DNA of 64,000 bases from an uncultured bacterium. GTDB taxonomy: Bacteria; Omnitrophota; Omnitrophia; Omnitrophales; Abzuiibacteriaceae. The stretch spans positions 64,001 through 128,000 of the forward strand of contig CAYLXA010000006.1 of assembly GCA_964387845.1 (NCBI GenBank), given 5' to 3'. Positions 15,458 to 46,400 of this stretch are shown piece after piece. The translations under genes were made by a program, and so were the position numbers. Below the pieces are notes generated by a model, which was not told the DNA's origin, did not search any database, and was given only the letters and a program-made list of their open reading frames with translations. The first letter of the stretch is position 1; every line of letters begins with the position of its first letter.

Positions 15458-15482
15458 CAATTCACAAAACTTGCAGCGATCA

Positions 15483-17426: not shown

Positions 17427-17447
17427 AACGGTTCAGAAAGATTAAGT

Positions 17448-18719: not shown

Positions 18720-18803
18720 GCCCGAAATTTGCCTTCCGTTTTCACCCCTCCGAGCCGATAAATTATCTGTAGTGTATACTTATTCAAGTCTTTAAATTTG
18801 TAA

Positions 18804-22037: not shown

Positions 22038-22124
22038 ATTTAAATTTCAAAATTAAAAATTCAAAATATTTGAAATATTAGGATTATTCGCACGGTTTTG
22101 AACTTTTAGTTTTGAATTTGTGAA

Positions 22125-25100: not shown

Positions 25101-25199
25101 TCGACTATCTTGACCTTGTTTGTCATTCCGAACATGTTCCTCTATTTTTCCGACCTGACGCGTCTTTTTCGAACTGAAAAAACTTCCAAGCAAATCTAG
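22125..25199 (+). CDS. RND efflux permease (AcrB/HAE1 family), subunit 2
   Basis: The N-terminus (VKKPVLVTVVFVGFLLLGILAAFRLPVELYQ) and the conserved GxxxD motif region (GLALSIGIMVDSAVVVMENV) match the family, and the length is 1024 aa. The start codon is uncertain (TTG 22125 or ATG 22134). Confidence 0.9.
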   Translation: MRSMGLPNLSVKKPVLVTVVFVGFLLLGILAAFRLPVELYQGTSSGIISIIIRARGGLAPVEVEHMITRPVEESVSTVSRLKTMYSNSREAESRVTLEFEPGTDMNFAALEVREKFSRVKSKLPPEIEKPVIANYSESESAVIVFAVISDTKTPEELREMVETDLKPWLERVDGVASVEIYGGRERKILVELDRDKMVAYSVSVEQVMDVLGASNINLLAGDYERGEYDFAVRTMGAFTSIDEIGNIGVKVTRQGSIIPLKEVATIKDSYLEPEDYARLNLNQNVSIYIKKTSLANTIKVVKLAKQVVKGYADEKVSELRIITVSDRAHSIERAIGDVRGSLILGVFLVTLMIYFALRSPVLALIISTAIPISVISTFLFMDFFGISLNVMTLSGLALSIGIMVDSAVVVMENVFKKREEGLSHEQAVREGSEEMWIPLLAASVTNLVVFLPIIFIDKEIQLIYQGFAFTVCISQVMSLLVAIMLIPMLLSKINFDVPSKPQESPAKPNFISKFYFWYEQLIRASFRLRYLMLSLIVMLFVASAWGLAHRDIDLPSTLEENEFQVVIFPLAGAKLETNDEVVKKIEEMLGQYKEVDLISTTVRKDDIRIFVRLVPRAKRSASKDVIMSQIKEKGNEEIKQVHEEYSLIVDEGASSEESKKMIINIFGLENETLEKLAHEFAKKINSVKGLTNLVMTDLRKRPEYSLVVDRARAAFYGLNVREVADSIHAQIRGMRPTKYHELTEGLEIETITRLQPIFRQKIDDLRNIFVVSPQTGVQVALEQFSSFYPSTGPQTIDRRNKYRYVFLKGDVNRPLETVGKEIKEAVKDVPMPKDYFWRFGGQYESLLQGRSELWLAFVITVVLIYMVLACMFQSFSEPVLVMIAIPLASIGVWLALTLTQKPLSQPVFIGMILLAGYVVNNSIILIDRINHLKKHIRDRNQILVKAGLDRLRPIMMTTGSTLIGFLPMAIAVSDSSELWSPLAVTVIGGLLTSTILTLFVIPNMFLYFSDLTRLFRTEKTSKQI

Positions 25200-25383: not shown

Positions 25384-25490
25384 TTTATCAAAGATTTTAA
25401 AAGATAAATTAAGTGTTTTTTATCTCACTTTATTTTTAGATGTAAGCACGACTCGAAAAAACCCCGGCAGTGAAAAGAGATTCCTAACAA

Positions 25491-28400
25491 ATGCGCCAGG
25501 TTGAAAAGAGTAAAACTTTTAATCTTTATCTAAAAGTTGTCGCGCTGATTGTTTTATTTACTTTTACGCTCAACACAATCGCGTGGGCTGACGGGTCTAG
25601 TAACTTAATTCAGTCGCTGCAGAATAATAAAGCCAGCACCTACCGTGACATTTTAGAATCCAACTTAGTGATTGATCAGTCCCTTCTCGACACTTCAATC
25701 ATTCCTGATAAAGTCGGGCACATCAAAAGCCGGTTTCAAGGTAAAAAGCCTCAGACGATTTACCATATTCAAGATGCGCACATCAACTACGATGCCCAGA
25801 TCAATATTTCCAAAATTATCGAGCAGGTATCAAAAGCAAACGGCACTGATTTGATCAACGTCGAAGGAGCCATGGGGCGACTGAACAATTACTGGCTCTC
25901 TTCATTTCCAAATGCAGAAGCGCGTGAATTGGTCGGTGATTACTTTGTCAGGGAAGGACGATTGAGCGGGCCGGCTTTCGCATCGATTGTCACACTTCCG
26001 AGATCAATCATCAATGGCGTCGAAGATGAAGCGCTTTATGAAGAAAACAGGCAGGCATTTTTAACGGCGCTCGCGTTTCGCGACCGGAATGAAGGGCTTT
26101 TGCAATCACTCCGGAATGGACTGGATCATGTGGCGCGCTACATTTTTCCGGATGATTTGCGCGAGCTCAGAATTCGCCATGACGCATTCCAGGAAGATTC
26201 GCTTTCGATGAAAGCATTTGTCCGGTATTTGGTGGAGTTGGCGCAGGCAAACAGCGTTAGCTTGTACCGTTACCGCCACATCGACGCGTTCATGAAATTA
26301 GTCGAGCTTGAAAAGTCGATCAATTTTGAAACAGCCGAAAAGGACCTCGAGGGATTATTGTCTGAGATTAAGAAGCGTATGCCGGCCCAGGATGTATCGG
26401 CTTTCGGGTTCAAAGTACTCCAATATCACCGCAAGAAATATTCCCGCAAAGATTTTTTTGAATATATTGATCAACTCATCAACAAATTACAGATTAGTGG
26501 CGAAGCGTTCATGCCGGCATTGAACTATGTGGCGTATATGCGCAGCTTCGACACAATCGGCGTGGAGCTTTTTGATGAGATCCGGCTCGCCGAGGATGAT
26601 TTGAAAAATAAATTGTTCCGCAACGAGACGGAAGTCAAGCTGGACCGGCTTTACCGGCTGCACGAATTGTTGAAGCACATTTTTGATTTCTCACTCACCA
26701 AAGAAGACGCCGAGTTTTTTTATTCCTATCGGGATGAATTTAAAATCACAAATTTCAAAGCCTTTATCGGCGAACAGGCGAAGGCGCTCGGTATTGAAGT
26801 CGAGCTGGATCCGAAACTCGAGCAGATTGACGATGATTTGCTGAAGGTCGAGAAATTTTACGAAATTGCTCTGAAGCGCGACAAAGTGTTGATCGAACGT
26901 TCTTTAAAAGCGATGGAAGCGGAAGGCCGCAAAAGCGCTTTTATAGTCACCGGCGGATTTCATACGCCCGGCATTGAACGCTATCTTCGAGAGCGTGATA
27001 TTTCTTATGTTGTGATCGCGCCCCGGATTTCTAGCAAAATCGACGAAGTCAAAGAAGCTATGCGCTATGAAAGCGCCATGCGCGATATGCCGTCCAAAAT
27101 CGAATCGCTGCTCAAAGAAGTTTACCAGCCGCAGAAAGCGATGATGCTGAACGATCCACGGTATCAAGTGTCGGCGCCGCAAGTGATTCGTCCGTTCGGG
27201 TCAGAAGGAAAGTTTGAAATTGGCGCCGGCGCAATTTTGCGCGGGTTTGTCGGAAAATCAGAACTTCGCCGGTGGCTGCCGGCTTTATCGGAAAATCTAA
27301 TCGCATCGGGCATCGATAGCAATTTGGCAGCACGCACACTGGAACGGTTTCAGGATTTCCAGCGAAACTTTGATTCTTACATCAAAGTCGAAATCAACAA
27401 GACCCATGTGATTGCGAGCAGGCTTCCGGATGGAAGAGTATTGATGACAGTGATGTATCCATCGAAAGATAAATCCGAAGTTGGCCGGCCGGGCGGTATG
27501 CATGATTACGCTAAAATTGCTGAAATCGGAAAGTTTGTCATTGAAGTATTTATAACGGATCGTGCTTTCTTGGAATCAATTTTGAAACGCGATGGTGCGA
27601 AGGTTGTTGAATCATCAGATTGGGTCTCTGAAGCATTGCCGCCAAGTTCACAGAGCACAGTTCCCGAAAGAGCCATTTCGGTTGATCTTGCCATGGCCAA
27701 GATGCATAACGGCGGCCAGACTTGGGAGTTATTGCAGAAAATCGCGCAAAGCAGCGACCTTAACTGGACTGCGATGAGCGTTAACGAAAAGTTGGCATCA
27801 ATTGAAAGTATTCTGATTGACCGGAAAATTAACCGGGACAATCTCGCGAGAGCCGCCTCCGAAGAATTAAAAATCATATCGCCATCCGCGGAAATCACGC
27901 TGCAATCTCGGTTCAGCGTTCGCGTCTTTATTTTTTTAGCGGAAAACGCCTTCGATTTAAAAAAGATGAGAATTAGGGATGAACTTTTATCCTTGATTCA
28001 ATCTCGTAACCGTTTTGATGAAGAGGTTGACGTAGCCGTATCCGCCGGTCCGGCCGCCTTGGAATCACTGCGCAGTGAACTTAGGCACTTAAACGCACTT
28101 GCGGGCGATACGCGCGTTGTGTCTCAGGCAGTCATTCGGGTCAATTCCGAGCTCCGAAAAATTTCAGCTCCCGTTTCAGAAGAAGTAAAGCCTGTTGCTT
28201 TAGAATCCGGCGCTCCTGCTGAAACTGCAAAAGTAGAAAAATCAGCCACAGAAGTTACGGAGCCGAAAGCACAAGAAGTAAAGCCAACGCGCGCTCCTCC
28301 TGCTCCAAAATTAAGCAAGGCGGAGATCATTAATAAAATTCTTGCTAAGCAAGCCGCAAAATCTTCAGAGCCGCTTAACTTTATTTCCAACATTTCACTC

Positions 28401-31400
28401 AAAGCAAAGACGGCCGACATTATCGCCGCAATCAAAGCGATTGGGTTTGATGATGAAGATCTCGAGCTTCTGTCGCAGCTTTCCGGCATTAACGCGGATT
28501 CTTCCGTTCAGGAATGGCGTTATGTTTACACGCAGGTCCGCCGGATCTTCGAAAAAATGTACAAAGTCCGAGACCAGCGCCACGGTGAAGCAAAAGCGGA
28601 ATCCAAAGAACCTTTGGTGGACCGCATTCTGCGCGCGTCCTGGAGTGCTGTGAAATGGTTTTCGAATCCATTCAAAGTGGGTAAGTGGCTGATCACGGTT
28701 GGCCCTCACTTGCTCGATAGTTTTTATTTTGGCTACACACGCCGCGCTTGGCAAATGACGCTTTTTGGAAAAGATATTAAACCATTTAACCGAGCGGATC
28801 ATATACAACAGGTTGTGGATACTTTGTCCGGAGCGATGTTGAATGCCAGAGAAAAGAACTTTGATTCATTTTTAAACCGGAGTCGGTTTGGAAATTCCAA
28901 TTGGAGCATTGTGTACCGTTTTGTTGATAAATACATCTCAAAATTATTTGTATTGCCGCACTTTGAATTTTTCATGAAACGCTGGAAGATGGCAGTTTTT
29001 GGTGTATTTGCACTCGGAACCGTGTCTGTGTTGCTGCCTGCAAGCGTCGCCGGCTACAGCTTGCTCGGTCCGGTGGGCATCTGGATTACAAGCGCTTTTG
29101 AAGGCGCAGGGTTCCTTAGCGTTGCTGCCAATGCTTTTGTTCATGCATTTACGGTTTCTTCATTTCTCAACACAGCGATTTTAGCGTTCATGCTTACTAT
29201 TCCTAATTTTGCAAAGCGTTTCTCCAATCTTCGCATGGACCGTATGATCATTACCCAGCTCGGGCGTTTGAAAAATCTGCAATCTTTGGATTATCCGGTT
29301 GTGCGTAAAGTTCTGAGCGATGTTACGCAGGGCGGGTTGCCCGTGGAGCAAAAATTACAAATCATTTTGGAATTGCAATCACTTCTTCCGCATGTCCGTT
29401 ACGATAATGACTCGCAGAAAACTTTATTTACGACTTTGGTCCATGACGAAGTGAGCCGAATTCAGGATGCGCTCAAAAGCAGCACGCAGGAACGCGCACC
29501 GCCAGTAGTTGAATCACCAAACTTGATCCAACGCTACATCATTTCTCCTCTCTTTGGTGTCATTCGCGCTACTTTCACAATCAACTTCGCAAAAGCGTTC
29601 GCAAAATCCATGTTTGGCATGCTGACGGTCGGTGCCGAAATCGGTGCTTTGGCGGGCGGCCATGCTCCAGGCGAGTACGGCGCTGCGCATTACATGGATG
29701 AATACCTGCTCTCGAAGCCCGTTTCATTCATCATGAAAAATATCACCGGCAATGCGGATTTCGATATCCAGGTTTCTTACTTTGAACCGGCGGTCAATTA
29801 CGTTGAACGCTTCATGATCAATGTCGGCCACTATGCGGTTGAAGGTGTCGAACACACATTCGGATTTAGTGCAGCAGAAATAGTCGCCAAAACATGGGCG
29901 AGCGTCCTCAATACTTTCGGCATTAAAACCGAGGTCGGTCAATTACTCTCAGAAGGCATCAGCCTTCAAGAAATTGAAGTGGCTCGTCAATTAGGCCTGC
30001 CGGCACAATTTCTAAAGTTCGGACAAAAAATACCAGAACCGCAAAAACAAATCGCCGCAGCGCCTGCCACAGGCGGCGCAGCGGGTATGGGACTTGCCAT
30101 GAACCCGATGCTGGCGATCGCTCAGATTGCCGCTATCAGCGCGATGGGTTCTACAAAAGAAGTACGGGATGGTACCGAATACAAAGATGAAAAGCCGAAG
30201 GGGGCGGCGATTCCGCCCGTTCTTTTTGAGAAATTTGAATTTGCGGTACCGCTTCATTCAAGCGTAGCAAATTTAGAAAACCTGAGAAAAGACTACGGAT
30301 CAGTTCCTGCTTCAGAAAGATACCAGGCTGCTCTGGCATTGCCAAAAGCCGAGGAAGAATATGAGGCGGCAAAGAAGAAAGCTTTCCTGAATTTGTTTGC
30401 CTCAGAGCGTCTGGCCGCAAAAGAAAAAGTTGATAGGTTGCAGTCGCTTACCGGAGATTCGATCTTAAAAGAAAAACAAAAAGTTTTCTGGAAACTGATC
30501 AAAGAAATTGACGAGCGCCAGAAATCCCTCGATAAGACCATCGAACAAATTTATAAAAGCGTTACCCATTACACTTCCGATAAGAAAGCAGCAGAACAAT
30601 TTATTGAGGAAGCCAGAGATCAGATTTCGGCGATGCGCGCGATGACGGATTATTTTTCCGCAGATGACGCGCGCTACGCCGTTAGAACCGGCGCCTGGCA
30701 GGTCATGGATGCCGCAGCTTCGGATAAAGAAGTAGCAAAAATTCGCGCGGATATGGCAAGCCGTGAACAAAAAATGGTGGGCCAACTCGAAAGAGTCAAA
30801 GATATTTTAGACCAGTGGCCGACCTATGTAGAAAGTGTTTTGAGCGGCGCTGACGTTGATGTGCCGGCACGTCTCATTGATGAAGAATATCTTCCATGGG
30901 GCGAGCGGGCAAAAGTTTGGCTGGCGGGAAAAGGCATTCCGAATGAAGTGATTGTTTCCACCGAAGGATTAATGACTTTGCTCCATGGTGTGCCTATTCC
31001 GATGCCGTGGGCTCAAAATGAAAGTTGGAAGGGGTCTTTACGGGTCGCGCAACATGATGTGAATCAGGGGCGGGCGGTTCTTGTTGTAACTGATCAAGGC
31101 AATGACTCTATCCGGCATGATGGTGCCGAAGTTTTTAGAGCAGGCTTGAAGGCAGGCATTAAAGAGGCTCTCGTGCTGCGTCATGACCTGATGCCATCGC
31201 AACGAAACAACTTCGTCGTAACGGCGACTTTTTATAGCGCTTCTGCTGAGCGGCTCATTCCTGTGCTCCTGGATGTGGTACGTCAGAATCCGGATATCAA
31301 ATTCAACGCGCGGATGTACGACACGACATTGCAAAAAACCAGTTCCAAACAAGCCGAAACAATCGCCAAACTGGAACAGGATGCTAAAGTTCTGCCCAAT

Positions 31401-34400
31401 CTTTTTGTTCTCAATTTGATCATGGATGACGGCGGTTATTCAAACAAGGGAATTGACGGCACGCCGGATCGGGTGGTCAATTATGAGGTGAGGCGCAACA
31501 ATGGGAAAGGTCCTTTTATCGGACATTTCCCCGGTATTGGCGGAGCTGACGACCCGGATACATTTGCTGCTGTTATGAAATTTAGAAAACAAGAGATAGG
31601 CGCGGCCTCTTCTGCAGCAGCAGAACCAGTTTCTGAGCCCAAAACGAGACATCACGTTGTTGTGGTGTATCAGGGAAAATCGGCCACACCTCCTGTCGAT
31701 AAGGTTGTTGATCAAGTTGAAGGATTGGGCGGCTGGCAGATCGCGAGAATGAAGGGCAATGAATTCAGCGATACAGTCCGTTCTCAAAAAGCGCTTGTCG
31801 CAAAAAAAGTTGAAGAATTCAAGTCTTTAAATCAGCCAGTAAAAGCGGTGACTCGCGTTGATCAATTTGAACGCGCTTTAATTAAAGAAACAGAGTCAGA
31901 AATCGTGCCGCAGCAAACCGCTGAGGTAAAAGCAGAGACAGAAAAGATTCAGGTTGCATTGACTAGCGCAATGCCGAAGCTTCAAGAGGTCGAGCCGGTT
32001 GCCGAAGAAGCGATTGAGCTTGTGTCGGCGGCACAAAAGAAAAGTGCTGTCGAGCAGCCGGTCTTGCTTTCGGATCTACCGCCCTTGTCCTATAGCCAAT
32101 ACCGCTCAGAACAAACCCCGGGCGAACAGCTTTCCGGAATTGATCAATTCGTTTCAAAAGATATTGCGGAACAAATGAGAAAGGATGCCAGCATTTTCTC
32201 ACCGCTTGCCGGCGCACCAGTCGGAACGCCGACGTATGGATTTAGGGACCAAAAGGGCGGGGATATTTTTGAAACTGAAAATCTGAGCGCGCTTGAGCTT
32301 AAGAATCTTGAGAATGAAAGCGAATTTCAATCTGCGGATTTCGCGACTTCCATTCATGTTTTTCTCAAAGCGCGCGATTTGATTAACCGAGGGGCTGCCG
32401 AACGCCGGCTCGAGCTTTTCCTCGAAGCGCTTCGAAAAGTCGAGCTCAGTCCGGACGGCTTGCTGTATGACCGTTACGATATCAAGCGACATTCTAAAAT
32501 AGGCGAGAAGACCAACCTTCAAACATCTAAAGCTATCTACGAATTGGCGGTTCAAATCCAGAGCGAGTACGAACAAATCGCAAAAGGCCGTAGCAAGATT
32601 GATATTCGCCTGATCAAAGAAAAGAATCTGATCCGGCTGGCAGGTTTGGTCAAAGAAAAATTTACGCGCGCACAAAACATCCGCTTACCTGAAATTCCGC
32701 AGCCCGAATTGCCGAAGCGGTTGTTTGTCGAAAAAGATGCCGAACCGCTTCAAATCGAAGAATCCGTCGCAGCATCCAAGCCTTTGCTTGCGCCTGAAGT
32801 GGTGCGCGTACCTCAAACCGCAGCGGTGAGCGGTGAGCGTGCGGTTGTTTCGAGCGTTGAAGAAATTGAGTTGGTGGCAGTGTCAACCCGGCCGCTTGTC
32901 GAAGAAAAAGTTTTGGAGCCGGCCGTTGAAAAGCAAGAGCCGGCGGTTGCGCTTGTTGAATCAATTCCGGCGCCGGAGCAGGAAAAAGTTGAACCAAAAC
33001 CGGCGGTCATATCAGTCCAATACGAAATGCCGGGAAAAGGCGGTGATGTTAAAGTCGCTTATCCGGAATTTGAGCCCGGCCAAGTTCAAGTCATGTTCCA
33101 AACGGAAGTATCCGTTCCGGAAAAACCGGCTCCGGTTCCTGCTTCTGCTCCGCCTAGCACGACTCAAGCCAATCAGCCGGCAAGCCTTCAGGCAATTGAA
33201 GAAAAAACAGTTCAAGCCGTTCCGGCCGCAGCGCCGAGTTTGGTTTCGGCGAATAAGCCCGTTTCAATTGATGAAAGAGAGCCGGTTGAAATGGAAATCA
33301 AAATTGCCCAACAGCCTGAGAAGGTTGAAGAAGTTGAAAAGGCGGAACCAAAGGTGCCCGCCCAAAAGTTGCGCATTCAGCTTCCGGATTTCAAGCGATG
33401 GATAAAATCCGCCAAAATTGCGGCTGCAGGACTCGTGGCACTTTCCGGCGCCTGGGTCAATGAAGTTTCGGCAAAATTTCAAGCAATTCCTCCCGCTACT
33501 GTTCAAAAGGCACCAGAAGTAAAAGAAGCCAAAGAAGAAATCGTAAAAGAAGAAATTGCACTCACTCCGCCCGTCAAAATTGAAGCACCAAGCCAGGAAA
33601 AATGGACGGATCTTGAGCATCAAAAGACGGCCGATGTAGTCATGGCGGCTTTGCGCAGCGCGCCGCAGGATTTGCGCGAGAAAGTTTTGGAACTTATCCG
33701 GTCAAAAGCCGGCGCTCCGGATTACATCCGAGAATTTGATGATTTGGTTCCGGTTCCTGAAGACATTCGCTCGCGCGCCAAAATAGAAACTGTCTCTCCG
33801 GGGCAGGAAATTAAATATTTCGGTGAAAAAGAATTTTGGGACGCCATGCAGGCAATTTATCCGCCGGATAAGGATCGTCCGCATTTTACTCCGTCTTATA
33901 TCCGCGACAATAAAGTTGCGATGACGCATGAAGAATTATTGAACCGAAAAGACCTTGAAATTTACGTGAATGGCCGATCGCTCGGCCAAAAATCAGCCGA
34001 TCATTTACGCCAATCTAAAGAACTCGAAAAATTACCCATTTTCTTTATCCGTGTCGGCGCCGGTTTTGTCGGCTTTGATTATACGGGTGCGACGATTTCA
34101 ATCGGTTTGCGCGGCCAATATTCATTGGGCCATGATTTAGCCGAGTGGCGGCAGGTGCTTAATGTGATGTCGGAAGAACATAAAGTAGCGGCAGATATTC
34201 TGAAACGTTACGTTGCGTTCAGGGCCGTTGGATATCAATACGCACAAGCGCAAGAAAAAGTGAGTAATGCGGATGCGGAAATCAAACGCATGAACGAACA
34301 GCTTGCGAAGGGAATCTATCAAGTCGCAACTCATCAGGACGAATACGCGATCGGAAAAGCCATCAGCATCATTCAGCATGAAATTAAAACTCAGCAACAA

Positions 34401-37400
34401 TGGCGTTACAACCAGTACGACACGAGCCGTGTTTTAGGCGAAATCATGAAGCTTGACTCGCGTCAAGTGCATGTTGAATTAAATTCCGATTATGTGCGCC
34501 AAATCCGAAAAGAGTTTGCGGATGCGCCCAATTCTCTGAAATCGTTGGATCCCTATAAGCAGCAGGAAATTTATTTGAAGACAGCGATGGAAATTTTGAG
34601 TGACCGGATTGAATTGGCCCAGAGGCACCTGTCCAGCATCAGCTACGAACTTCGTTTCGATATCTTTTTGGCCAATAAGGCTTCGGACCTTTTGGCTCTG
34701 ATCGGCGGCTTTGGCGTCAGGAAAGGCAACGACCGGACACTTGGGCAAAAATACATTGACATCGCCAAAAAACAGATCGACCGCTACAAACAGTACGGCG
34801 ATGAGCGTTACAAGGTTGAAAAACTGGTTCGTGATTATCAAAAATTGAAAGAAAGATACGACACGACCTATACGGAATCCGTGAAGGCAGCGCAAAAACA
34901 TTATGAATTGGCCAAAAAGTTGGATGCGCTCGAAGTCATTCCGATTAACGAACTAGAACAGGCTTGGAAGGCCTATGAAAGTCAACTCAAGGAGAAAGAT
35001 GCGCTGTATGTACAACTTCAACGCATTGTTGCTGAGATGGAAGGGCTCCGCACTGCCCAGCTTTCAGCAGAATCGATTGAGAATCCGTCGCCAACCATGC
35101 GCGAACTTCAAAAGCTTGAGCAGCGCCTCAAAGATACGGATCAAATTGATTCGTTGGTTCAAATCAGGGAAGCCGAAGGTGTCACCGGCAATGAGCTTCA
35201 GTTTTATAAACGCATCCAGCAAAATCCGGACAAGGAAAGATCGGATATTCAAGCGGAGCGGGTTGAATTGGTAAGACAGCTGCGCGAAGATGCGAGCCGC
35301 ATTAGAGCGATTCAGGATAAAAGCGGGCTCAATATTGATTATCTCTATCCTCTGGATTCTCGAAAAGGTGAATGGATGTGGAAAACCGGCCGGGCAATCA
35401 AGGGGTTGGACGGTAAATATTACACAATCCCAATGCTAATTCCCATTAAGGCCGAATACCAGAGTTATGCGGAAAGTTTGATGGAACGCGGCCTCGCAAA
35501 ACAAAATTTCCTGGGTAACTTTCAATCATCATTTTCGGACCGCCATATTGAAGACCAAGCTCACGAGTTAATGAACCGGTATCTCGAAATCAGGCCGAAA
35601 GACGGACAAAAGCCTGCTTGGAGCCGCGAGGAACGAACACAGAAGATAAAAGAATTTAATGAAATGGCAGAGAGTTATTTAAAACGCCTCGAGGAACTTG
35701 TTCCGGCCTACGCTGCGCTTGATTATGCAGGAAGGCCGAAAAGTTATGGCGAGCGGCTCATGTCCGATGAGGAGTGGCAAAATTTTCACAGCGAATACAA
35801 AAAATTCGAGCGCAGTTATTATGCTGCGCAAGAAATGGTTGCGGAATTAAGCCAGGAAATTTTGCCGGCGACAGGCGATGCCGTCAATCCGCAGATTGAT
35901 GTCTTAAAAGCGCAAAAGTTAGCGGCTGAAACGGCCAAAAAATCAATCGATCTCAACATGTTTGATGAAGCGACAAACATCGCCGATGCTTCTGATTTGA
36001 CAATCCCTGAGCATATCATCGGGCCCGCGACTGTAAGGGCACAAACCACCGATGTGCCGGTCCGGGCTTGGCAAGAAGGCTTATTGTCGGCGGCAATGCC
36101 GATGATCCGAAAGCAGTCCAACGTTCTTTTTGACCTCAATATCCAGGGCTACAACTTCGAATTAGAAAGACTCTTCAAAAAAGATTTTGAAACCAAGGAA
36201 CTCCAGGCAATTCCCGTAATCGGCTGGTTTGTTCCGGGCAGCGATTCTGAAATTACGGAAATGAGAGCGCAGGTGTTGGTTATCCGCCAGAAAGTCATGA
36301 AGCCGGATGACAGCGGTTCGGGCGGCGGCCTTGGCGGTGGCATGGGTGGTGGCGGGCAATTACAGCTTCCGGGCAAATTGGGCAAACTCCAACAAATGAT
36401 GGGACAGATGCAGCAATTGATGGGTTCGTTTCAGGGCCTTGGAAACGGCGCGCAAACATTTCTCGGTGCGGCTGGTCAACGGTTTCCGATGGTAGCCCGT
36501 GCACAGGGCTTGCTGCAAGGAATCAATGCTCAGCAGCAAATCTTTAATCAATTTACAGGCGGCCAGAATTCTTCCCTCCTGCCGTTTGTCACAGGTCAAA
36601 TGAATCAGCTTAATCAAACCGGCCGGATTCCGTCTGTCGGTCTCGCGTCTTCCGGAGCGACAGGGCCGCACGGAGCACTGCAAACATCGACACCGGGCCG
36701 AGTCAGCGGCGAAGCTTATTCGGCGGATGCGTTTAATCAGGGACTTGATTCACTCAGGCAGGGCGGTGATTTAGCGAAGGAAGTGACGGGTAAGCTGCAA
36801 GGTCAAGGCGGTGAGCAGGGTGGTATGACAGAAGAGATCGAATATGAAATTGCCGGCGTGTTTACGGTCCAATTCAAATTAACGGGCAGCAATGAAGAAA
36901 AACAGAATCAGCTGCGCACTCTTATTGCACTTAATGAACAAAATAAAGTGCTTTACGAAACTGACCAGCAGAAGAAACTCCTCGAAATCGCAATTGATTA
37001 TGAGGGTAAGGTCCAGTTGCTCAGGGCAAGAAAGCTTCACCGCGAATTTGTCAATACCACACGGCGAGCTATCCTCGATAAATTCACCGAGTGGCGTGTA
37101 ACGCCGGCGAAACAGGTCGAATTTGAAGCAGATTTAGCCGTCATCGACAAGAACATTGACGACCTAGAAAAAGAAATCGCCGAGACGCCCAATAAAATCA
37201 GGGAAGCGCTGAAGGTTACACCGGAAGCTGCCAACGGCCTGCTGCACATGATGAAATCTGAAATCGAAAAGCACGGCATTGTCGATATTCGCGAACTGAA
37301 CGGCATTGAGAATTTACGCCGCCAAATTGTTGAGAACCCATATGCCGACCGGGCCGCAGGGTACCGTGTGCTTGCTGCTCAGCTGGAAGAATCGCGCGCA

Positions 37401-40400
37401 AAGTTATTTGAGAAAATCAAGAACGCTTATCAGGTTGAGCTGAGCGTCAGCACAAAGCTGGAATTCAATGTGGTGCTTCAGGAATTGGGTTACGCGATCC
37501 GCAATGCAGTCGCGGGTGAACAGCGCGGTACGATTAATGATTTTCTGGGTCAGATTCAAACGGGCCTGAATCCGCAGGAAATGCAAGGCCAAAGAGACCG
37601 GTTAGAGGCGTTGACGACCGCGATCCGGAAAAGCGGTCTCAAGCGCGAAGTGATGGATGCTTTATTTGAAGTTGCGATCGTCGAACGTGTCATGCAGGAA
37701 CGGGTCCGTCAAAATGAGAAAAATCGAATGGAGCAGCTCATTCGTTTAGAGGAAGCGAAGCTGCGTCTTCGGCGCGAAGAAATCCAGCTTGCAAAAATCC
37801 ATGAACAGAAAAGAATCACGCCCGCGGACAATTGGATCAAGCAAGTCCTTCTGTCCGCGGAGATCTATATTCAGGAGCTTTTGCTTATGGGTGCGCGGGA
37901 TGATCTGGCGAAAGCGATAATGCAGTCGCTTTCTGCGATCGCGATGAGCGAGGAAGAAATCCGGTCTTTGCAGGTTTTAACCAACGCAGAGCAGAGAATT
38001 CATGAATCAAACCGCCGGATCGGTCTCCTACAGGCGCAAGCCGTTGAAAGTGATGTGTCAACCCGGGAAGAATTTTTTGAACTCCAGAGAGAGTTGAAAT
38101 GGCTTTATGAGCGAAGAGACCAATATTCCTTGCCAAGCACACCGGACGGCTCTTTGAATGAGTTAGACCAAAAAATTGCAGAAAATCATAAAGCCATTCA
38201 AGCATTGGTTGCTGATGCGCTTCTGCGCAATCCGAAAATCAAAGAAAAAGTTACGAAAGAAGAAGTCATTCGTGATGAGCTCTTAATTTCTAAAAAGAAT
38301 ATCGAAGAAGAAAAGCAGGCTGTGATCAGCCGCCACGATCAAGAGGTGAAAGTGATTTTGGATCCGATGATCCAGCTCCATCAAGAACGTGCACAATTGG
38401 GAATTGATGCGGCCAATCGGCTCGATGTTGAGCGCGCCAAAAAGGGAGAGGACCCGGTTTTGGTCGAGCTCAGCGATGCGCGCCTTGCGCAAAGCGTGAG
38501 CGAAGTGGAGGGAATTGACCGAAACGCTGTCTTGGATGTGATGAGTAAGGTCATGAACGTGATCGGTGATATTGAAGTGGCGCAAACCATGCTGCGGGAA
38601 TGGGACGGAAAAGCGTTACCCCGTTACCTGGATCGCCTGCTCAGGAATCTGTATTTTCTGGCCGGCACCAATCAATTAGACGATGTGCTGCGCGGGACGG
38701 CGCAAGGGTCATTCAAAATGGGTATCGGCGGTTCGCTCATTAGCGATGAAGACCTGAGAAATTTAATCCGCGCGGAAGCCTCGCGCTGGGCGATTCGTGT
38801 GAAAGAAGTTGTCCGCGATAAGATCATCCGGGACGAGCAGGCAAAAATCTACAGCGAATATCTGCAGTATGTCAGTTTGATTGAAGAACTTTATATCGAC
38901 CTCAAAAATATCCGAGCCCTCGAGAAAGCAATCAAGGCTTACGAAGCCCGCGCTAAACGCCAATACGATACAGAGCGCTTAAACGATGCAACCGGCCCTT
39001 ATGAAAAATTAGAACAGGCGAAAGTCCGGCTTTATGTGTCTTTAAAAAGAATCAAGGTCCAGCGCGCACAGCTCGAATTTTTGACTCAGGAATATTTACC
39101 GCACAATGTGTCGGTCTTTAAATCCGTCAAGGCGTCAGGGAAGAGTGTTGAGGAAAATCTGGAGATCGAATTCCGAACCTCGGCGGCTCATGAACAAGGC
39201 GTCGACTTGGAAGCGCTTGGGGCCATGCTCAGCGGTGAAGTGGCTGCCGAAAATCCGTTTCCGGCCGGTTCCGACAAGGCAGTGTTTTGGAATAAATTTT
39301 ATAGATCCAATATCCGCGGCGATGAATTTATCCGTGAAGTCCGCAAGCTGCGGATGTCTCCGGAAGATGTGTCAAAACTCAAAAAAGAAAACGGGCTCGA
39401 GCAATGGATTTGGGGTTCTTCGGACAATCAGTTTCAAGTCGCAAAGGCCATGAACGAAAATTTAAATGCCGATGCCATTGGCTTTTTCCTATTTCCATTT
39501 GGCAGCTTCAAGTTTGACATCAACGCGTTTTTGGGCGGTTCCTGGGACTTCAAAAATAAACCCGAGTTCTTGAATATTATCAACGCTTCAGCCGAAGTGG
39601 AGTTTGACTGGGGCGCCAAATGGCAAGCCTTCCAATCGGCCGTTCAGAAATCTTTGAATGAAGCGTTTAAGCTAGATGAAATTTCAAATGACGCCGTCCG
39701 CCGACGCCATCAAATGCTCATGGAATATGCGTTTATGCAAATCATGTACGAAGCGTCCCAAGAAATATTGAAAACCGCCATCGAAAATGAATCCACATGG
39801 TATAAAGCGCTCATGAGGGGCAAGATTGACTGGGATAAATATTACACATCAAACACGCACGGCCTTGCGCGTATTTGGGACCTCGAGCGTACATTAAAAG
39901 AAGAATGGGTTGCATTGCATGCAGCCAGCCGCAACATTCAAAATTCTCTTGAGGAATCAGGAATTCAAAGCACCTCTGTTTTGATCCAGTCTTTCCCGCT
40001 TCCATTGCCGCCTGAAATTGAACACAAACTGGTGTCGGAAGCCGAGATTCAATTACAAGAGCATGCCGCCCAACAAGAAAAGGCGGCTCTTGAAAAAGCT
40101 GCCCAAGATGCAGCTGCAAGAACGAAATTCTTTTCCGAATTTAAAGACTTATTTTCAAGATTAAAATCACTGACCGAGAACATGTTGGTTAATCTCGAAA
40201 ACGTCATGAATAAACTCGGCGACCTGCAGGATCAATATAAGCCCACGCAGCATCACGGGGAGCTCTCACCTGAAGCAAAAGCAATTTTGCCTGACACGAA
40301 TGAATTTCTGAGAGTCTTGAAAGTCAAAACCCAGAGCGGTGTTGATTCTGTTGATTTGGAAACATTTGCCGAACGAATGGCAACGTTTGGAAGAGAGCGG

Positions 40401-43400
40401 CATATGTCGTCCGAGGATCTGCAAAATCTAATACGGTCTGCGATTGAAATTGCCAAAAAATTAGAAGCTGCACCGGGCGAAGCCCCGAATGAATTACAGA
40501 CAAAATGGGCTGCCATGTCTGCGCCCGGCACAAAAGCGGACGGCTCTGCGTTCTTGATGAGTGAACGTTGGCCGCCATTCCTGGAAATTCCTTTGCGGCA
40601 TCTGTTTACTCAGGAAGAAATCATACGCTCGAGAGGTTCTATCGCTGATAAGAATCTCAATTTATATCAAATCGGCGCCATTCTACTTTCCGCTATGCGC
40701 GAGCAAGCGGCTAAGGAGCTGGACTATCGGTTTGAGAACAATTTAGACGAACTGGTAAACGGTGTTGAAGCCTACAAACAAATCCGTGCCGGCTCCGGCG
40801 ATGCGTCAGCTGTGCAGCGCTATCTAAGTTGGTATAGGAAATGGGTGATCCCCGTAGGCAGTGCCGAGTCACTATTTTCAACCGGAGTTCTCCTTTACCG
40901 TCCTTGGGTTAAATTCCAAAGAGCCGGGGATCAGGAAATTAACATTGATGACATCAGACAGCATTGGTCGTTTGTGTCAACGTCATTTGTGAAGCATATT
41001 CAAAAATCCGAGAAATTTCAGGCAATCGCGCAATATTTAGGTCTGGATCCGGTTGAGTTTTTTGACAGTCAAAAAGATCAAGGCAGGCTCTACGCCATTA
41101 TTTCAGAACTGCTTAATACCGGCATTATTAAGACGCTGCCGACAACCGAAGCCGAACTGGAAGCTCTGAACGCCGAAATTGATCATTTCTTTGGCGAGCT
41201 CATGCCTTTGATTGAAGAACGCAAGTATTTCTACCTGACCGTAGGCGCTCTTCCGAATTACAGTGATTTAACCCAAATGCAGCATTACACCGCATTGGAC
41301 GGCAGATTAACAGGAACCGGCGGAGCGGAACTGCCATTCGCTAAATTCCAAGAAGATGCAGCGCGGATGGAAGACGGTATCGGCAAGTTACAAAAACTCT
41401 TACCTTCCGATATTATTTTTTATCAGCAAGTTAAAGAGGCGAAAAATGTTTTGGATGTTATCAAGAATGCCTCCGATTACTCTCAAATTTCAGACTTAGA
41501 AGGTCTCATGGACCATTTGCGAGAAATCGTGGACTACGCCCGCGAAACCTATGCGTCGTTGCTGCTGGGCGATGCCTACTATCATTATGGATTTTTCCGG
41601 GAGAATAAAGCAGTGCTGGTCCAGTTAAATTTAATAGATAAAAAGGATCTTAACTCCAAGGGGGCGCTGAAGCCGGATAGCTTGCGGCCAGTTACGCAAA
41701 AGTATAACCAGCTACTTCTCCATTCAAAGGATTACATTGAGCATTTTTACTTGGGTAAACCAATTGATTTCTCAAGCATGGATCAAATTGGTGTTTGGAA
41801 TGCGCTTGCGCAGACCAAAGCCGCCGGTTTGGATGATACGGTTTTCTCTGCGTATTTGAATTGGGCAAGCCGAATTGCAGGTATTCGTGAGAAAAGTGCG
41901 CTGTCCGATGCTAACCGCGAGCTTGCAGCGCAATTATGGAAAATCATTCCGGGACTTCAAGATAAAATATCAGAACAAAAATATGCGGAAGCTCTCGCAT
42001 CAGGCCTTGCGGTCCATATTCTTTTAAATCCCGAGCTGACCGAAGCTGATTTGATCCAGCTCATACAAAATATCAAGGCAATGTTGCAGAATCCGGAGTT
42101 GGTAGAGAGCGTTATACGAGAGTCACAGTCGGAGCTGGAAATTATATACGGCGAATTACGCTCCATTGATTTAACACGGCAGAAAGATTTTGGCATTTTC
42201 TTCAACGCATTTGCGGAAGCCCATGAATTGGGATTCAGCCAGTTTCTGGTCCGTCATCAGAGAACTATGAATTTGATTCAAGAGCATCAACGCATCCGGG
42301 AGCAGGAGAAAGGCACCGGCTCTCGAGCGGAAACCGCTTTGAGCCGCGCTATCCTGATCGGCAGTCAAATTGAAAGAGTTAAGAACGGTGACGGCGCAGT
42401 ACAGATTGATGAAATCTCATTCTTCCAAAATCAAAAAGCGCGCAATTCGGTCATGTGGGTTTTGAGCGGCATGGCAGACGAAGGTGTTGATCCTTTTGTT
42501 TTGAAATCTGAAGCTATTTTGGATTTTCTTAGGGAATTTTATTCAGATCAGCCGGTTCGTTACGATCATCTTGGCCGTGTTAGCGTGGATGCCGAGTCGA
42601 AAACAGCTGTGGAATTAGCAGCCGAGCTTGCTCGTGAGCGTGAAGTTGTATTTCAAGGCCAGGACGCACTCACTATTTCGGCAGAAGGCATCAAGCAAAG
42701 CCGTGTGATTTGGAACCGGGTGATGGCAGAGTTGGGCGGCATGGCGGACGAAGGCCTCCAAACCTGGATCCAAAAGCATCGCGGCAGCGATAAGCAAATC
42801 GGCGTCTTTCCAATGCTCTCAAACCGCGAACAGTTGAACAAATTATTTCCGTCTATTGAAGCATTCTATCAATCTATATTTGGAGCTGCCAATACACCCG
42901 AAATCAATCCAGAGACTTTCAAAGCCAATAAAAGGGTACAGATGCTTGTCACAGCCTGGTTGGGTTCGGCTGCTGAAGAGGGATTGGCAGAATGGAACGC
43001 CAAAAGCGATGTGATTGCTCGAATATTAAGCAATCCTGAAGAAAGAAAGCAAGTGATCGAAGCAACGCGGGAATATGCACATGCTCTGGAAAAAATATTG
43101 AAGATTGATTATCCGGAAATCAGCGAACAATCTTTGGTTGATGATCGCCGCGCGCGCGCTTTGGTTTTGGCTTGGACGGGCGCGCAGCAAGAGGACGGAA
43201 AAGTAAAATGGGCACGGAAAAACTCGGATATCATCACTTTCTCAGAGCGAGTCAATGCGCAAGCCGATTTTGCGGAGGGATTGGATAATGTCACGAGGCA
43301 TTATTATGAGGCCAAGTATGGGGAAGCGGTCGGCAGGTCCTGGACGCCGAGCCAACGAGGCCAGCAAGTCGGTTTGATTTTCATGCTGGCACGCCAGTAT

Positions 43401-46400
43401 GTGGAAAATCCAAATCTAACGGATGGCCGGCTGATCGAGTATGTTAACGCAATGGCTGATCTTGCCCCTGTCTTTATCGGAAGAGATGCATCATCCCGTT
43501 CGTTTGATCAATCCAGAATTCATCAAACCTATTTGAGGCTGATTGGTGAGACGAAATCGCGCCATGATCAGCAGCATGAAATGGGATGGGTTGATGCAGA
43601 ATTGGCGTATATGGCCGAACTGATTGGCTGGGATGGAGTTAATTGGAAGAAGCGAGACCGCTGGCGCTCACTAAGTTCTTCCGAAAAAATCGAGCACCGC
43701 TATCGAGTGCTCGAAAAAGCGACGGACCCTGTGATCCAGCAAGAAGCCAGGGATTTGATGGCGCTGGTTTCTTCCAAATCTTCGGATCAATGGGATCTGC
43801 GCGCTCATCCTTCAGACTTGGGCTTTTTGGTGACATGGGCAGACATGAAAATGGAGGCCGGGGAAGCAACCGATCTTTTCGGACAATACCGGCATGTGAT
43901 TGATTCTTCGGCATTCAGCCGTTATTTAAAGGAATTTGATATTGCCCAAGAATTCCGAAAGGAACTTGCGTCGACTTTTTCTGAAGTTGTGAAGAAGGCG
44001 AACGGGGAAGACGCGGACCGAAACCAAATCGAGCGTTTTTATGAACTCATGGGCCGCGTGTCATCTTTTGCGAAATTTACATCACTGCAATTTGATCAAA
44101 AAATAAAAGTCAATTTGGAAGTCATCGATGCGCTGAAGCGCTATTATGGCCAGTCTGCTTCTGATTCCAGCCAGGCAATGATCGACGGCGTCATTGATTT
44201 GTTATCCGTCCTTAAGATTGAGCCGGTTGAGCTGGCCGGAATGCAAGCTGAGAATTATTATCAACTCCGCGAAATGATGTACCTCATGGCAAAGATTTCT
44301 GAATACCGCAGAAACCGCGAGATGGCAAATGACGGCCCCGTTCCGCAAGCCTATGTTGAAGATATGAAAAGGGAATATAGGTCTGTTTTTGTTGAAAGTA
44401 TGCTGCCGGGATTTGCGCAGAAAATAGTGCCGGCCAAACACGGAAAATTGGAAAACTGGATCGGTGATTTTGAAAGCATTATCCGTGAATTGGCTGATTA
44501 TCCCATAGAGCTTGAGAGCAGCGATGCAATTTCTCAATATAATTTTGCGCGATTCCTGAAAAATCTAGAAGAGGAAGGCATTGTGCTTGATGACGCGTCA
44601 GTTAAAATTTACGAGCGGGTGTTCAAGCAGTACCAGCTCATGGGCCTCGCAAGCTGGTGGCTTGATCAGAAGCTTCCTGAGGCCGAGGAGCAATTTACGC
44701 TTTCTGAAATTAAAGAAAGGATTCAGAGAAAGAAGCTTGTCTGGGCTCTGAATGAGAAATACTGGAATTCAGAAAGTTTGCACATGCCAGTAACTGCGGA
44801 CGAGATATCATTCTTGGCCGATTTAGAGCTTTACGAAGACGAGTATGAACACTTTTTTAGAATGAGTGCCCTTTTCCAGAACTGGGCATCAGCTCACTTG
44901 GGCCGCCATCTTTTCTTTGATGAAATTATCTACTTCTATTTTGCTCCCGGTAAATATTTCGGTGACCTGGTCATGCCATTCCGCGGCGGCTTGTCTCGGC
45001 TTTTAACTTGGGGCCAGGACCCCGATTTGCTCTCCAGGTTTAGAGCGAAACATTTATTTGAAAATGTTTTAACCGGACCCGAACAAGCGCTTTATCAAGT
45101 GGCCATGAATCGAGAGAATGAAGAAAGGCGCTTTATTTTGTGGCATGGACAGAAACAGTTGCTAAGAGTGATTGGGCTGGGCCCGGATTATGAAGATTAC
45201 TGGTATGACATTCTGCATGAAAAGCAAACGCTGGGCGAATATGCAAGCGAGAAATATCTTAAAGAGTTGTTGGTAATGGGGCGTGTTCTGAGCGAGGGTG
45301 TTCGATGGCTTGCACTCGGCAATCACTTTTCATATGACGACAACATGCTGACTGATGAATTTAAGCGGAATCAATACATCATTTTAAGGCTGCTGACACG
45401 CCGCGAATACCGCATATTGACTTCAGATGAAGAGAAAATGAGCATCAAAAAGTTGATTGAGTATACGCGCGATCAAACCAAAAACAAGAAAGTCGAAATT
45501 GAAAATCCTTCGGAATGGGTTGAATCGCTAAAGGAATTAGCCCGAGCCCATAATCGTGTTATTGAAACCGAGCAAGAGCTTAAAGAAATCATTAAAAGTA
45601 TTTTATGGGATGCGGAAACGATTATCGACGAAGCTGATCGCGAATACGATGTGAAGCTTGATCAGGATTCTGTCCTGAAAGTAATCATGGAGCAGCGCAT
45701 CAACGGAGAGCTGCATCAAATCACCAAAGCAGAAGAAATGATTACAAAACATTTCGCCAATTCAGTTATTGGCAGGAATTCGATCGAATTGAGCAATGAA
45801 GAAAATCAGATGCCTGTCTCTGTATTGATTGAAAAATGGCTCAACGATTATGAACTTCAAAATACGCCGATTGCAGGCCTGAAAGACCGCTGGATATTGG
45901 CTGCCAATGACAGATCGTTGGATTATGTTTCGATTAAGACGATCTTTTCAGACCTTAAAACAATGCAGGACGCTTGGCGTAATGCGCCGCTGTTTAGGCC
46001 GATGGATTTAATCGAGTCATTAAAACTTGTGAATAAAGTCCGGCGCTTTGGTTTGGATAATATCGGCATTGTGGAGCCTGAAATATTAACGCCCGTTCAA
46101 AGAACGGAAAAATATAAGAAGAATAAGAAATTGTTTTTAGGAATGATCGGAAGCGATTTGATCGCGGATTCAACACAGCAAATCGCCATTCTTTTCAACC
46201 AGCAAACTAAAAACTGGAGCATTCAAAAAACAATTGACGATCTTGAGAAAGACAAATCAATTGAAACAAAACAAGAAAGCTTCCGCTTGATCCATGGTGC
46301 CGCCGTTGTATTGGTCCTGTCTCTTATTTTAGTAACCATTCGGGCGCATTATTTGAAATGGAGACAAATGCAGTCGGCTAAGAAGGCAGGGCTGCCGACA

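Follow-up and report, generated by a model that had tools for sequence, protein, structure and literature searches.

A proline-rich linker at a module junction of a 9,371-residue protein from an Omnitrophota bacterium

The 64,000-nt window analyzed here (assembly GCA_964387845.1, contig CAYLXA010000006.1, positions 64,001 to 128,000) originates from an uncultured member of the Abzuiibacteriaceae (Omnitrophota) and encodes a giant protein with an internal segment of about 300 residues biased towards proline, glutamate, valine and lysine. A sequence-only reading of this DNA had likened the segment to the extensible PEVK region of titin and proposed that, together with a single hydrophobic helix, it crosses or bridges an envelope compartment, possibly the periplasm. 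This raises the question of whether the segment is a spring, a ruler spanning the envelope, the surroundings of a membrane anchor or a linker between modules located on the same side of the membrane.

Host protein and genomic setting

25491..53606, + strand: giant ORF containing the linker, 9,371 aa, from the ORF list and its translation

The biased segment (nt 32690-33600) corresponds to aa 2401-2704 and lies in frame within this single ORF; the entire linker spans aa 2398-2704 (nt 32682-33602). Frame +1 contains only 4 stops across the linker region. An alternative-frame ORF (32833..33405) and antisense ORFs were taken as by-products of the biased composition within the 28-kb open frame.

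Judged from its homologues, the 9,371-aa ORF is a member of a giant membrane-protein family of the Omnitrophota. The 161 homologues identified, which are mostly named Omnitrophota or Omnitrophica, have only the N-terminal ~570 aa in common, and 113 of the 120 listed align to aa ~1-570 of the giant protein. Behind a signal-peptide-like N-terminus (AWA↓DG, judged by eye), the protein contains a conserved module of ~500 aa (HIQDAH...GGFHT) with the invariant residues H97, Q103, E125, G488, G489 and H491, and the N-terminal fold resembles TIKI/ChaN. Cysteine is absent from the protein, and a Pfam scan returned zero domains at E<=0.01 with the exception of one chance match. GT2-like motifs noticed by eye near aa 7560-7580 found no Pfam support and were set aside. 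Based on the N-terminal signature, the TIKI/ChaN-like fold and the absence of cysteine, we infer that the linker is probably extracytoplasmic.

Like previously described Omnitrophota giants (10.1101/2023.11.21.568195; 10.64898/2026.06.07.730766), the protein comprises several thousand residues, carries a putative signal peptide and TM helices and is largely unannotatable. Unlike these, it contains no SecA-DEAD, C39 or S8 domains, and at 9.4 kaa it is below their size classes. The main texts of both studies mention neither linkers, disorder, proline nor cysteine content. This host-protein context, an Omnitrophota giant with no Pfam domains, no cysteine and a TIKI/ChaN-like N-terminus, is more interesting than the linker itself.

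The ten flanking genes that were scanned encode an RND efflux system, NusA, IF-2, a DHH phosphoesterase, RibF and PNPase. The relative P0003, which is central to the comparisons below, is encoded directly behind OEP-MFP-AcrB-AcrB genes, exactly the same order as upstream of the 9,371-aa ORF. Three further loci with a giant gene after AcrB (L072, L032 and L022) were found via the upstream AcrB gene; their contigs all stop well short of residue 2400 and do not cover the linker region.

Composition and predicted disorder of the linker

32682..33386, + strand: linker part 1, aa 2398-2632; acidic, P/E/V/A/K/Q-rich, non-repetitive, predicted coil
33003..33116, + strand: strand-like island in the linker, AVISVQYEMPGKGGDVKVAYPEFEPGQVQVMFQTEVSV, aa 2505-2542; alternating hydrophobic/polar pattern and a local TOP-IDP dip
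33387..33488, + strand: helix island, DFKRWIKSAKIAAAGLVALSGAWVNEVSAKFQAI, aa 2633-2666; 34 residues, proline-delimited, with the layout of a signal peptide or anchor
33489..33602, + strand: linker part 2, PPATVQKAPEVKEAKEEIVKEEIALTPPVKIEAPSQEK, aa 2667-2704; assigned from composition, TOP-IDP and coil in the model

Residues 2401-2704 consist of 14.8% E, 13.5% V, 13.5% A, 12.5% P and 8.9% K, with glutamine at 6.6%. P+E+V+K account for 151 of these 304 residues (49.7%) compared with 25.2% of the whole protein (+9.8 SD, binomial), and the protein-wide maxima of 100-aa windows for both the PEVK fraction (0.58) and the proline fraction (0.17) fall within the linker. The claim of a PEVK-rich linker of ~300 aa within the giant protein is thus borne out, and the peptides quoted for it are present. 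Alanine is enriched as much as valine, and 'PEVKA-rich' is a better label than 'PEVK'. Prolines punctuate the segment at short intervals (39 in 311 residues; median spacing 6 residues, compared with 17 protein-wide), and the helix island is the sole proline-free run longer than 26 aa.

Several indicators suggest that the linker is disordered. On the TOP-IDP disorder-propensity scale, it forms the longest top-5% stretch of the giant protein (aa 2403-2629 and 2668-2714), and its sequence entropy is 3.2-3.6 bits versus a mean of 3.81. A low-confidence AlphaFold model of aa 2230-2900 places coil at aa 2396-2633 and 2664-2706 and helices in both flanks. This model was run without an alignment and its mean pLDDT of 37.5 stays below 50 almost everywhere including the flanks, which makes pLDDT unusable as a disorder test, and the secondary-structure pattern alone was used. 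The single-sequence model predicted no strands at aa 2505-2542. Its abundance of V, A, I and L places the linker just inside the 'ordered' region of the Uversky charge-hydropathy plot (mean H of 0.467, boundary at 0.439).

The linker is not built from repeats. Tandem Repeats Finder detected just two trivial microrepeats of 7 and 9 nt in its DNA, a BLASTP self-comparison found no internal repeats, and an exhaustive search of 1.84 billion protein representatives returned no homologue of the linker itself. Similar stretches occur elsewhere in the protein:

28161..28343, + strand: shorter linker of similar style, aa 891-951; TOP-IDP top 5%, weak compositional similarity to the main linker
31590..32099, + strand: two short linkers of similar style flanking a small domain, aa 2034-2063 and 2124-2203; TOP-IDP top 5%

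By TOP-IDP, the linker style thus recurs three more times within the giant protein; PEVK windows of at least 0.45 begin at aa 2091-2103. Among relatives, it was seen in 14 of the 20 closest and in 4 of 100 distant ones.

The PEVK region of titin is composed of tandem PPAK-type repeats of ~28 residues and/or poly-E blocks, with very high proline and about 70% or more P+E+V+K. The linker shares with it the enrichment of the same four residues and a probable unstructured, extensible character. The likeness goes no further: the linker contains neither PPAK-type repeats nor poly-E blocks, has no Ig/Fn3 context and no homology to titin, and reaches just 50% P+E+V+K at 12.5% proline, with alanine and glutamine equally prominent.

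The module junction and its counterpart in P0003

32103..32681, + strand: upstream helical module X, aa 2205-2397; homology to P0016, helices in the model, ends at the linker start
33603..35198, + strand: downstream module Y, aa 2705-3236; common to the positional orthologue P0003

The linker coincides with the boundary between two modules that are defined by homology, at aa 2397 upstream and at about aa 2705-2764 downstream. Upstream, aa 2264-2372 of P0016 align with aa 2282-2397 at 31% identity; downstream, aa 2355-2825 of P0003 align with aa 2764-3236. A first protein homology search with aa 2205-3300 gave no match, probably because low-complexity words swamped the candidates, and an exhaustive HMMER search recovered P0003 as the sole true match (E = 5.6e-13, in module Y). 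The second match of that search, P0121, was dropped as a tandem-repeat artefact. Scans of genome and metagenome contigs for module Y retrieved no relative, and a search of PDB sequences gave no match to it.

P0003 is the only colinear relative found and follows the 9,371-aa protein over about 4,000 aa. At the equivalent junction it contains a linker of closely similar composition (composition r = 0.92, enrichment r = 0.86), which shows no sequence similarity to that of the 9,371-aa protein, does not align with it and contains no hydrophobic helix. The P0003 linker comprises ~105 aa compared with ~305 aa, an about threefold difference in length. In this comparison of two proteins (n=2), position and composition of the linker thus appear to be conserved, whereas sequence and length are not. 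The junction is a mosaic, as the cassette upstream of it differs between the orthologues, being glucanase-like in P0003 and unrelated in the 9,371-aa protein. The glucanase-like domain was considered as an indicator of the compartment and proved uninformative, because beta-1,2-glucanases exist in both signal-peptide-bearing and signal-peptide-free forms (PMC12102758).

Proline spacing, the coil in the low-confidence model, the absence of repeats, the position at module boundaries and the counterpart in P0003 together uphold the proposal of a non-globular, low-complexity linker; no folded repeat domain was predicted for the segment, which is present in the colinear homologue. The linker is probably an ordinary disordered inter-module tether. 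It shares low complexity, the position at a module boundary and recurrence within the protein and its relatives with the generic disordered inter-domain linkers of giant multidomain bacterial proteins, from which it shows no essential difference; its particulars are the embedded signal-peptide-like helix and a style largely confined to the closest clade. Such a tether would connect the upstream cassette flexibly to module Y and the rest of the protein (from aa 2705), allowing the neighbouring modules to fold and act independently. By our estimate, the 233 residues preceding the helix would have their ends roughly 10 nm apart on average, with an extended length of up to about 70-80 nm. Only composition and junction position would be maintained, and linker sequence and length could drift freely.

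An extended length of this order would exceed the width of the periplasm, which is 20-30 nm. Together with the enrichment of all four PEVK residues and a plausible extended, proline-rich conformation, this speaks for a titin-like entropic spring or a periplasm-spanning ruler, with functional elasticity and a length matched to envelope width. TonB/TolA-like transducers carry a TM anchor with an SHLS motif directly before the proline-rich domain and are driven by an ExbBD/TolQR motor. The linker resembles their architecture in that a basic-flanked hydrophobic helix is followed by a non-globular stretch rich in Pro, Glu, Lys, Val and Ala and then by a folded domain. However, it is located inside a protein of 9,371 aa with most of its length (235 aa) upstream of the helix, (EP)n/(KP)n arrays are lacking and the helix is only marginally hydrophobic. 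The S-H-L-S pattern is absent from the helix KIAAAGLVALSGAWV, no TonB_C or TolA C-terminal domain was identified by Pfam in the giant protein, and no ExbBD/TolQR genes are among the ten flanking genes. Furthermore, both ends of the linker join large modules of one polypeptide rather than a motor and an outer-membrane partner. Proline-rich domains that span the periplasm are known in TonB and TolA, where domain II keeps its composition more than its sequence and proline-rich, helical and disordered variants exist (PMC12204202). That linker length varies threefold between positional orthologues speaks against an envelope ruler; together with the missing PEVK-type repeats, this variation leaves the spring or ruler reading, and with it the earlier proposal of a periplasm-spanning spacer, very improbable.

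Helix island, membrane topology and significance

33417..33458, + strand: hydrophobic core of the helix, IAAAGLVALSGAWV, aa 2643-2656, 14 residues
28713..29666, + strand: conserved membrane module, helices H0-H4, aa 1075-1392; homologous to P0001-P0005 and P0019, used in the crossing count

The sequence-only reading located the hydrophobic helix at the correct nucleotides and took it to follow the linker; it is instead embedded about 80% along, with about 40 P/E/V/K-rich residues after it. The AlphaFold model predicts a helix at aa 2634-2663 with low confidence. The island comprises a basic n-region, a 14-residue apolar core and V-S-A (KRWIKSAK / IAAAGLVALSGAWV / NEVSA↓K), with 5 K+R upstream and 1 downstream of the helix. 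This layout fits the n-h-c criteria of Sec-type signals (basic n, apolar h of 7-15 residues, small residues at -3/-1) but is internal, starting at residue 2634. A crude n-h-c pattern occurs at 3 sites in the 9,371 aa (aa 16, 1170 and 2643), where 0.045 are expected per shuffle, a test devised after the site at aa 2643 had been seen (p about 0.045); of the other two sites, one corresponds to the true N-terminus and one to TM1 of the conserved membrane module. The helix itself is only marginally hydrophobic, with a Kyte-Doolittle 19-residue maximum of 1.33 (threshold 1.6), a crude Hessa-scale sum of +6.2 compared with -1.9 to 3.4 for clear TM helices in the giant protein, and a TopPred-like score of 0.91, which qualifies as 'putative' only; the usual benchmark for a TM helix is about 19 or more consecutive apolar residues or above-threshold hydrophobicity. 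In overall appearance the helix resembles a signal peptide or signal anchor placed internally. The in-frame Met nearest to the helix is M2601. An SD-like AAAGAGA before it resembles the sequence upstream of the true start; it encodes E-R-E and was not taken as internal initiation.

Does this helix cross the membrane, as had been proposed? Between the conserved membrane module and module Y, P0003 contains no credible TM segment, which requires an even number of crossings in this interval of the 9,371-aa protein, zero being the simplest. The only other TM candidate there is Hx (aa 1526-1553), whose counterparts in aligned homologues are polar amphipathic helices. Sub-threshold hydrophobicity, the missing helix in P0003 and the crossing count all speak against a crossing.

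Alternatively, the proline-rich stretches could be juxtamembrane linkers around a real crossing, in which aa 2634-2663 would act as a weak type-II signal anchor (N-side cytoplasmic, C-side outside), similar to a TonB/TolA-style anchor with a proline-rich stalk. This would place the linker part of 235 residues in the cytoplasm and that of 40 residues in the periplasm. This arrangement agrees with the asymmetry of K+R around the helix and with the positive-inside enumeration, in which the best models have the helix as an in-to-out crossing (scores of 21 and 19 versus 18 without it, nearly tied), and the proline-delimited island of 34 residues is long enough for a bilayer. In addition, six relatives (P0001, P0009, P0013, P0014, P0017 and P0018) contain strongly hydrophobic, basic-flanked single helices within proline-rich segments, suggesting that a true crossing flanked by proline-rich linkers is a recurrent design of the family. 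Flanks with at least 10% P accompany isolated TM helices of the family in 11% of cases compared with 4% of background windows (Mann-Whitney p = 6e-6 upstream, 0.02 downstream). However, the 14-residue core scores below every clear TM helix of the giant protein on all three measures, P0003 has module Y without the helix, and a second crossing would be needed for which the polar Hx is the sole candidate. We therefore regard a crossing at this site as possible but unlikely.

The reading that we favor, and consider probable, is that aa 2398-2704 form a disordered, proline-punctuated, net-acidic tether at a mosaic junction; modules X and Y would lie together with the linker on one side of the cytoplasmic membrane, which the helix would not cross. 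The embedded helix would most probably be a weak membrane-associating or helix-packing element, or else what remains of the signal anchor of an exported protein that was originally independent and became fused in frame.

The last option touches on another explanation, in which module Y would be the mature part of an exported protein that used to be encoded separately, and the island a fossil of its signal peptide or anchor. In that case, the low-complexity sequence would be a neutral remnant of a C-terminal tail, an intergenic region and an N-terminal stalk, of which only the frame was kept open. Regarding the origin of the helix, this scenario overlaps with the tether reading. The n-h-c layout with V-S-A at -3/-1, found at one of just three sites in the protein, is consistent with a fusion, as are the different upstream cassettes in the orthologues and the unconstrained length and sequence of the linker. 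Against it, neither the contig scans nor the exhaustive search found a homologue of module Y that stands alone behind an N-terminal signal peptide, and the pattern test was post hoc. Furthermore, a like composition recurs at the P0003 junction and at other junctions, suggesting that composition is selected, and a neutral scar appears improbable.

Internal signal sequences that are cut by signal peptidase are a feature of flavivirus polyproteins. By analogy, the island might be a functional internal signal sequence that is cleaved at V-S-A↓K after insertion, splitting the precursor into separately acting polypeptides, with the proline-rich linkers keeping the cleavage site accessible; we consider this quite improbable.

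Taken alone, the linker matters little, as disordered proline-rich tethers between modules are common. It does mark a module seam in a protein that is beyond annotation by domain libraries. West-Roberts et al. (2023) tiled giants arbitrarily at 1,000 aa (10.1101/2023.11.21.568195), and cutting at compositional seams would offer a rational split for structure prediction instead. The recurrent proline-rich segments around basic-flanked helices in the closest relatives provide a testable handle on the topology and possible processing of these proteins. The cleavage points of Omnitrophota giant proteins were stated as unknown in the same study (10.1101/2023.11.21.568195); internal cleavage, if true, would supply these missing points, and linker-plus-anchor cassettes would mark the seams where exported proteins fused into giants.

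Composition and anatomy of the linker

The segment at nt 32690-33600 corresponds to residues 2401-2704 in the translation of a single forward-strand ORF (25491..53606), which encodes a giant protein of 9,371 residues, and the peptides quoted in the sequence-only reading are found at this position. Its composition is dominated by E (14.8%), V (13.5%), A (13.5%), P (12.5%), K (8.9%) and Q (6.6%), with P, E, V and K contributing 151 of 304 residues compared to 25.2% in the whole protein (+9.8 SD), and alanine being enriched to the same degree as valine. The protein-wide maxima of PEVK and of proline content (100-residue windows) both lie inside the linker, which is also the longest stretch in the top 5% of a TOP-IDP disorder-propensity scan of the giant protein. 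By these measures the segment is PEVK-rich as proposed, with a genuine compositional bias that chance comes nowhere near explaining. The likeness to a titin PEVK spring, however, did not hold, as the linker lacks the repeats and poly-E blocks of titin PEVK and has half of its characteristic composition. No DNA tandem repeats other than two microrepeats and no protein-level internal repeats were found in the linker.

Residues 2396-2706 contain 39 prolines in 311 residues, with a median proline gap of 6 residues compared to 17 protein-wide. Two features lie within this stretch:

aa 2633-2666: proline-free island DFKRWIKSAKIAAAGLVALSGAWVNEVSAKFQAI, 34 residues between P2632 and P2667-P2668, the only long part of the linker that lacks proline
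aa 2643-2656, nt 33417-33458, + strand: hydrophobic stretch IAAAGLVALSGAWV, 14 apolar residues

The linker is net acidic (49 D+E vs 34 K+R) and falls slightly on the 'ordered' side of a charge-hydropathy plot owing to its richness in V, A, I and L; disorder is therefore argued chiefly from the spacing of prolines and the low complexity. AlphaFold2, run without an alignment on aa 2230-2900, returned pLDDT < 50 nearly throughout, which makes its confidence unusable as a disorder test; its secondary-structure pattern is nonetheless clear, with coil (aa 2396-2633), a helix (aa 2634-2663), coil to aa 2706 and helices in both flanks. By scaling laws, the 233 residues before the helix are estimated to average ~11 nm from end to end and to reach 72-84 nm when extended. 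Overall, the segment has the properties of a generic disordered inter-module linker, and the sequence-only reading was right to interpret it as a linker.

The module junction and its orthologue

When aa 2205-3300 were searched exhaustively with HMMER against 1.84 billion representative proteins, the search retrieved one true relative, the homologue P0003, which matched the downstream module only (query aa 2757-3214, E = 5.6e-13), and no homologue of the linker itself. Scans of genome and metagenome contigs likewise found no relatives. The second HMMER match, P0121 (E = 3e-10), consists of 2,073 aa of perfect ~63-residue tandem copies and was rejected as an assembly or repeat artefact; entries of this type can contaminate homology lists. 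The linker ends coincide with module boundaries: the alignment of another homologue, P0016, covers aa 2282-2397, while that of P0003 begins at aa 2757-2764, the downstream module probably starting at W2705 (W2286 in P0003).

P0003 is the positional orthologue of the giant protein: the two are colinear in four blocks over ~4,000 residues, and its gene follows OEP, MFP, AcrB and AcrB genes in the same order as in the window. Upstream of the junction P0003 carries a different cassette with glucanase-like domains (PF10091, PF11329). At the same junction it has its own linker of ~105 residues (aa ~2178-2283), which is similar in composition to that of the window protein (r = 0.92; enrichment r = 0.86), shares no sequence similarity with it and contains no hydrophobic helix. 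A linker is thus present in the colinear homologue, whereas its absence there had been named as a refutation of the proposal. The threefold difference in length between the orthologues (~105 vs ~305 residues) argues against a length-tuned envelope ruler, and the suggested periplasm-spanning role is not supported. Linkers of the same style also occur elsewhere in the giant protein (aa 891-951, 2034-2063 and 2124-2203) and, among the matches listed, in 14 of the closest 20 but only 4 of 100 more distant relatives.

The hydrophobic helix and membrane topology

The hydrophobic helix is embedded within the linker, not placed directly behind it as the sequence-only reading had stated. Its hydrophobicity is marginal: the Kyte-Doolittle 19-residue maximum is 1.33 (under the usual 1.6), the crude Hessa-scale sum is +6.2 vs -1.9 to 3.4 for obvious TM helices of the giant protein, and the TopPred-like score of 0.91 is classed as 'putative' only. 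Five K/R residues occur in the preceding 15 residues and one after the helix, and V-S-A comes after the 14-residue apolar core, a layout that resembles a signal peptide or signal anchor. A crude n-h-c pattern, designed after the site was seen and expected 0.045 times per shuffle in the soluble region, matches three sites in the whole protein: besides the linker helix, these are the genuine N-terminus and the opening helix of the conserved membrane module. Strongly hydrophobic helices within proline-rich segments, most with a basic N-flank, are also present in the homologues P0001, P0009, P0013, P0014, P0017 and P0018; family-wide, proline enrichment at the flanks of isolated TM helices is modest, with 11% of flanks reaching ≥10% P vs 4% of background windows. 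The placing of an anchor-like helix ahead of a proline-rich stalk recalls TonB/TolA domain II, but this identity was rejected, the SHLS anchor, EP/KP arrays, TonB_C domain and nearby motor genes all being absent.

The lead-in to the linker helix, LPDFKRWIKSAKIAAAGLVAL (aa 2631-2651, nt 33381-33440), resembles that to TM1 of the conserved membrane module, LPHFEFFMKRWKMAVFGVFAL (aa 1155-1175, nt 28950-29000), with 43% identity over 21 aa, which is not significant (E = 2.9). An in-frame M2601 (nt 33291) lies 42 residues before the hydrophobic core and is preceded by GAAAGAGAG (region 33270-33293), which resembles GAAAAGAGA upstream of the true start codon of the giant gene (region 25470-25493). 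This would bear on any internal-initiation idea; the likeness is probably coincidence, since GAAAGAGAG encodes Glu-Arg-Glu.

Positive-inside topology enumeration nearly ties, with models including the helix as a TM segment scoring 21 and 19 vs 18 for models without it, and the orthologue-based crossing count is more informative. In P0003, nothing that separates the conserved membrane module (helices H0-H4) from the downstream module is a credible TM segment, the sole weak candidate lying inside a glucanase-like domain, which places the membrane-module exit and the downstream module on the same side. The same arrangement in the window protein requires an even number of crossings in this interval. 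That the linker helix is a genuine TM segment is unlikely: its only possible partner crossing, Hx (aa 1526-1553), has amphipathic helices of polar and charged character as its counterparts in five homologues. The simplest reading is zero crossings in this interval, and the linker helix probably does not span the membrane.

The host protein and its gene neighbourhood

A signal-peptide-like N-terminus (AWA|DG, by eye), an N-terminal TIKI/ChaN-like fold class and the lack of cysteine suggest an extracytoplasmic side for the linker. Cysteine is absent from all 9,371 residues of the giant protein, whereas the window's remaining 22 ORFs (80 Cys in 10,556 residues, 0.76%) predict ~71. Exported or unfolded-secreted proteins typically exclude cysteine. 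The nearest relatives are likewise cysteine-free or nearly so (P0001, 0/7569; P0003, 0/3380; P0017, 0/7079; P0020, 0/6753), and 120 listed homologues have a median cysteine content of 0.17%. Beta-1,2-glucanases are known both with and without signal peptides (PMC12102758), so the glucanase-like cassette of P0003 does not settle the compartment.

No Pfam domains were found in the giant protein. Another low-complexity region (aa 3606-3790, window 36306-36860) is quite unlike the linker, being dominated by Gly, Gln, Met, Leu, Asn and Ser (SGSGGGLGGGMGGGGQLQLPGKLGKLQQMMGQMQQLMGSFQGLGNG...); it gives several weak 'putative' hydrophobic peaks, and the C-terminal third contains ~20 strongly hydrophobic helices (aa 6930-8135, window 46188-50090). 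A weak HD-domain signal at aa ~8710-8768 (window 51618-51794) is below cut-off (E = 0.03), and motifs resembling those of processive GT2 synthases by eye (ITEDATT, TRWFQG, near aa 7560-7580) have no Pfam support.

Giant proteins have already been described in Omnitrophota (West-Roberts et al. 2023, 10.1101/2023.11.21.568195; 10.64898/2026.06.07.730766), and neither main text mentions cysteine absence. Among the matches listed, almost all relatives are named Omnitrophota/Omnitrophica; they have in common essentially the N-terminal ~570 residues only, the rest being mosaic. The linker belongs to an ordinary class of features, although the protein that carries it is unusual.

The giant gene is followed by nusA, infB and genes for a DHH phosphoesterase, RibF and PNPase, and is preceded by an RND efflux system consisting of an OEP, a HlyD-type MFP and two AcrB proteins, an AcrB being 68% identical to that of Omnitrophica MAG CG11_big_fil_rev_8_21_14_0_20_45_26. 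The order OEP, MFP, AcrB, AcrB, giant gene (window 15471-25199 plus 25491) is kept in the P0003 contig (L080, 246-20143) and in a minimum of three further Omnitrophota genomes (loci L072, L032 and L022). Its conservation suggests that the RND efflux system and this giant-protein family are linked functionally or transcriptionally.
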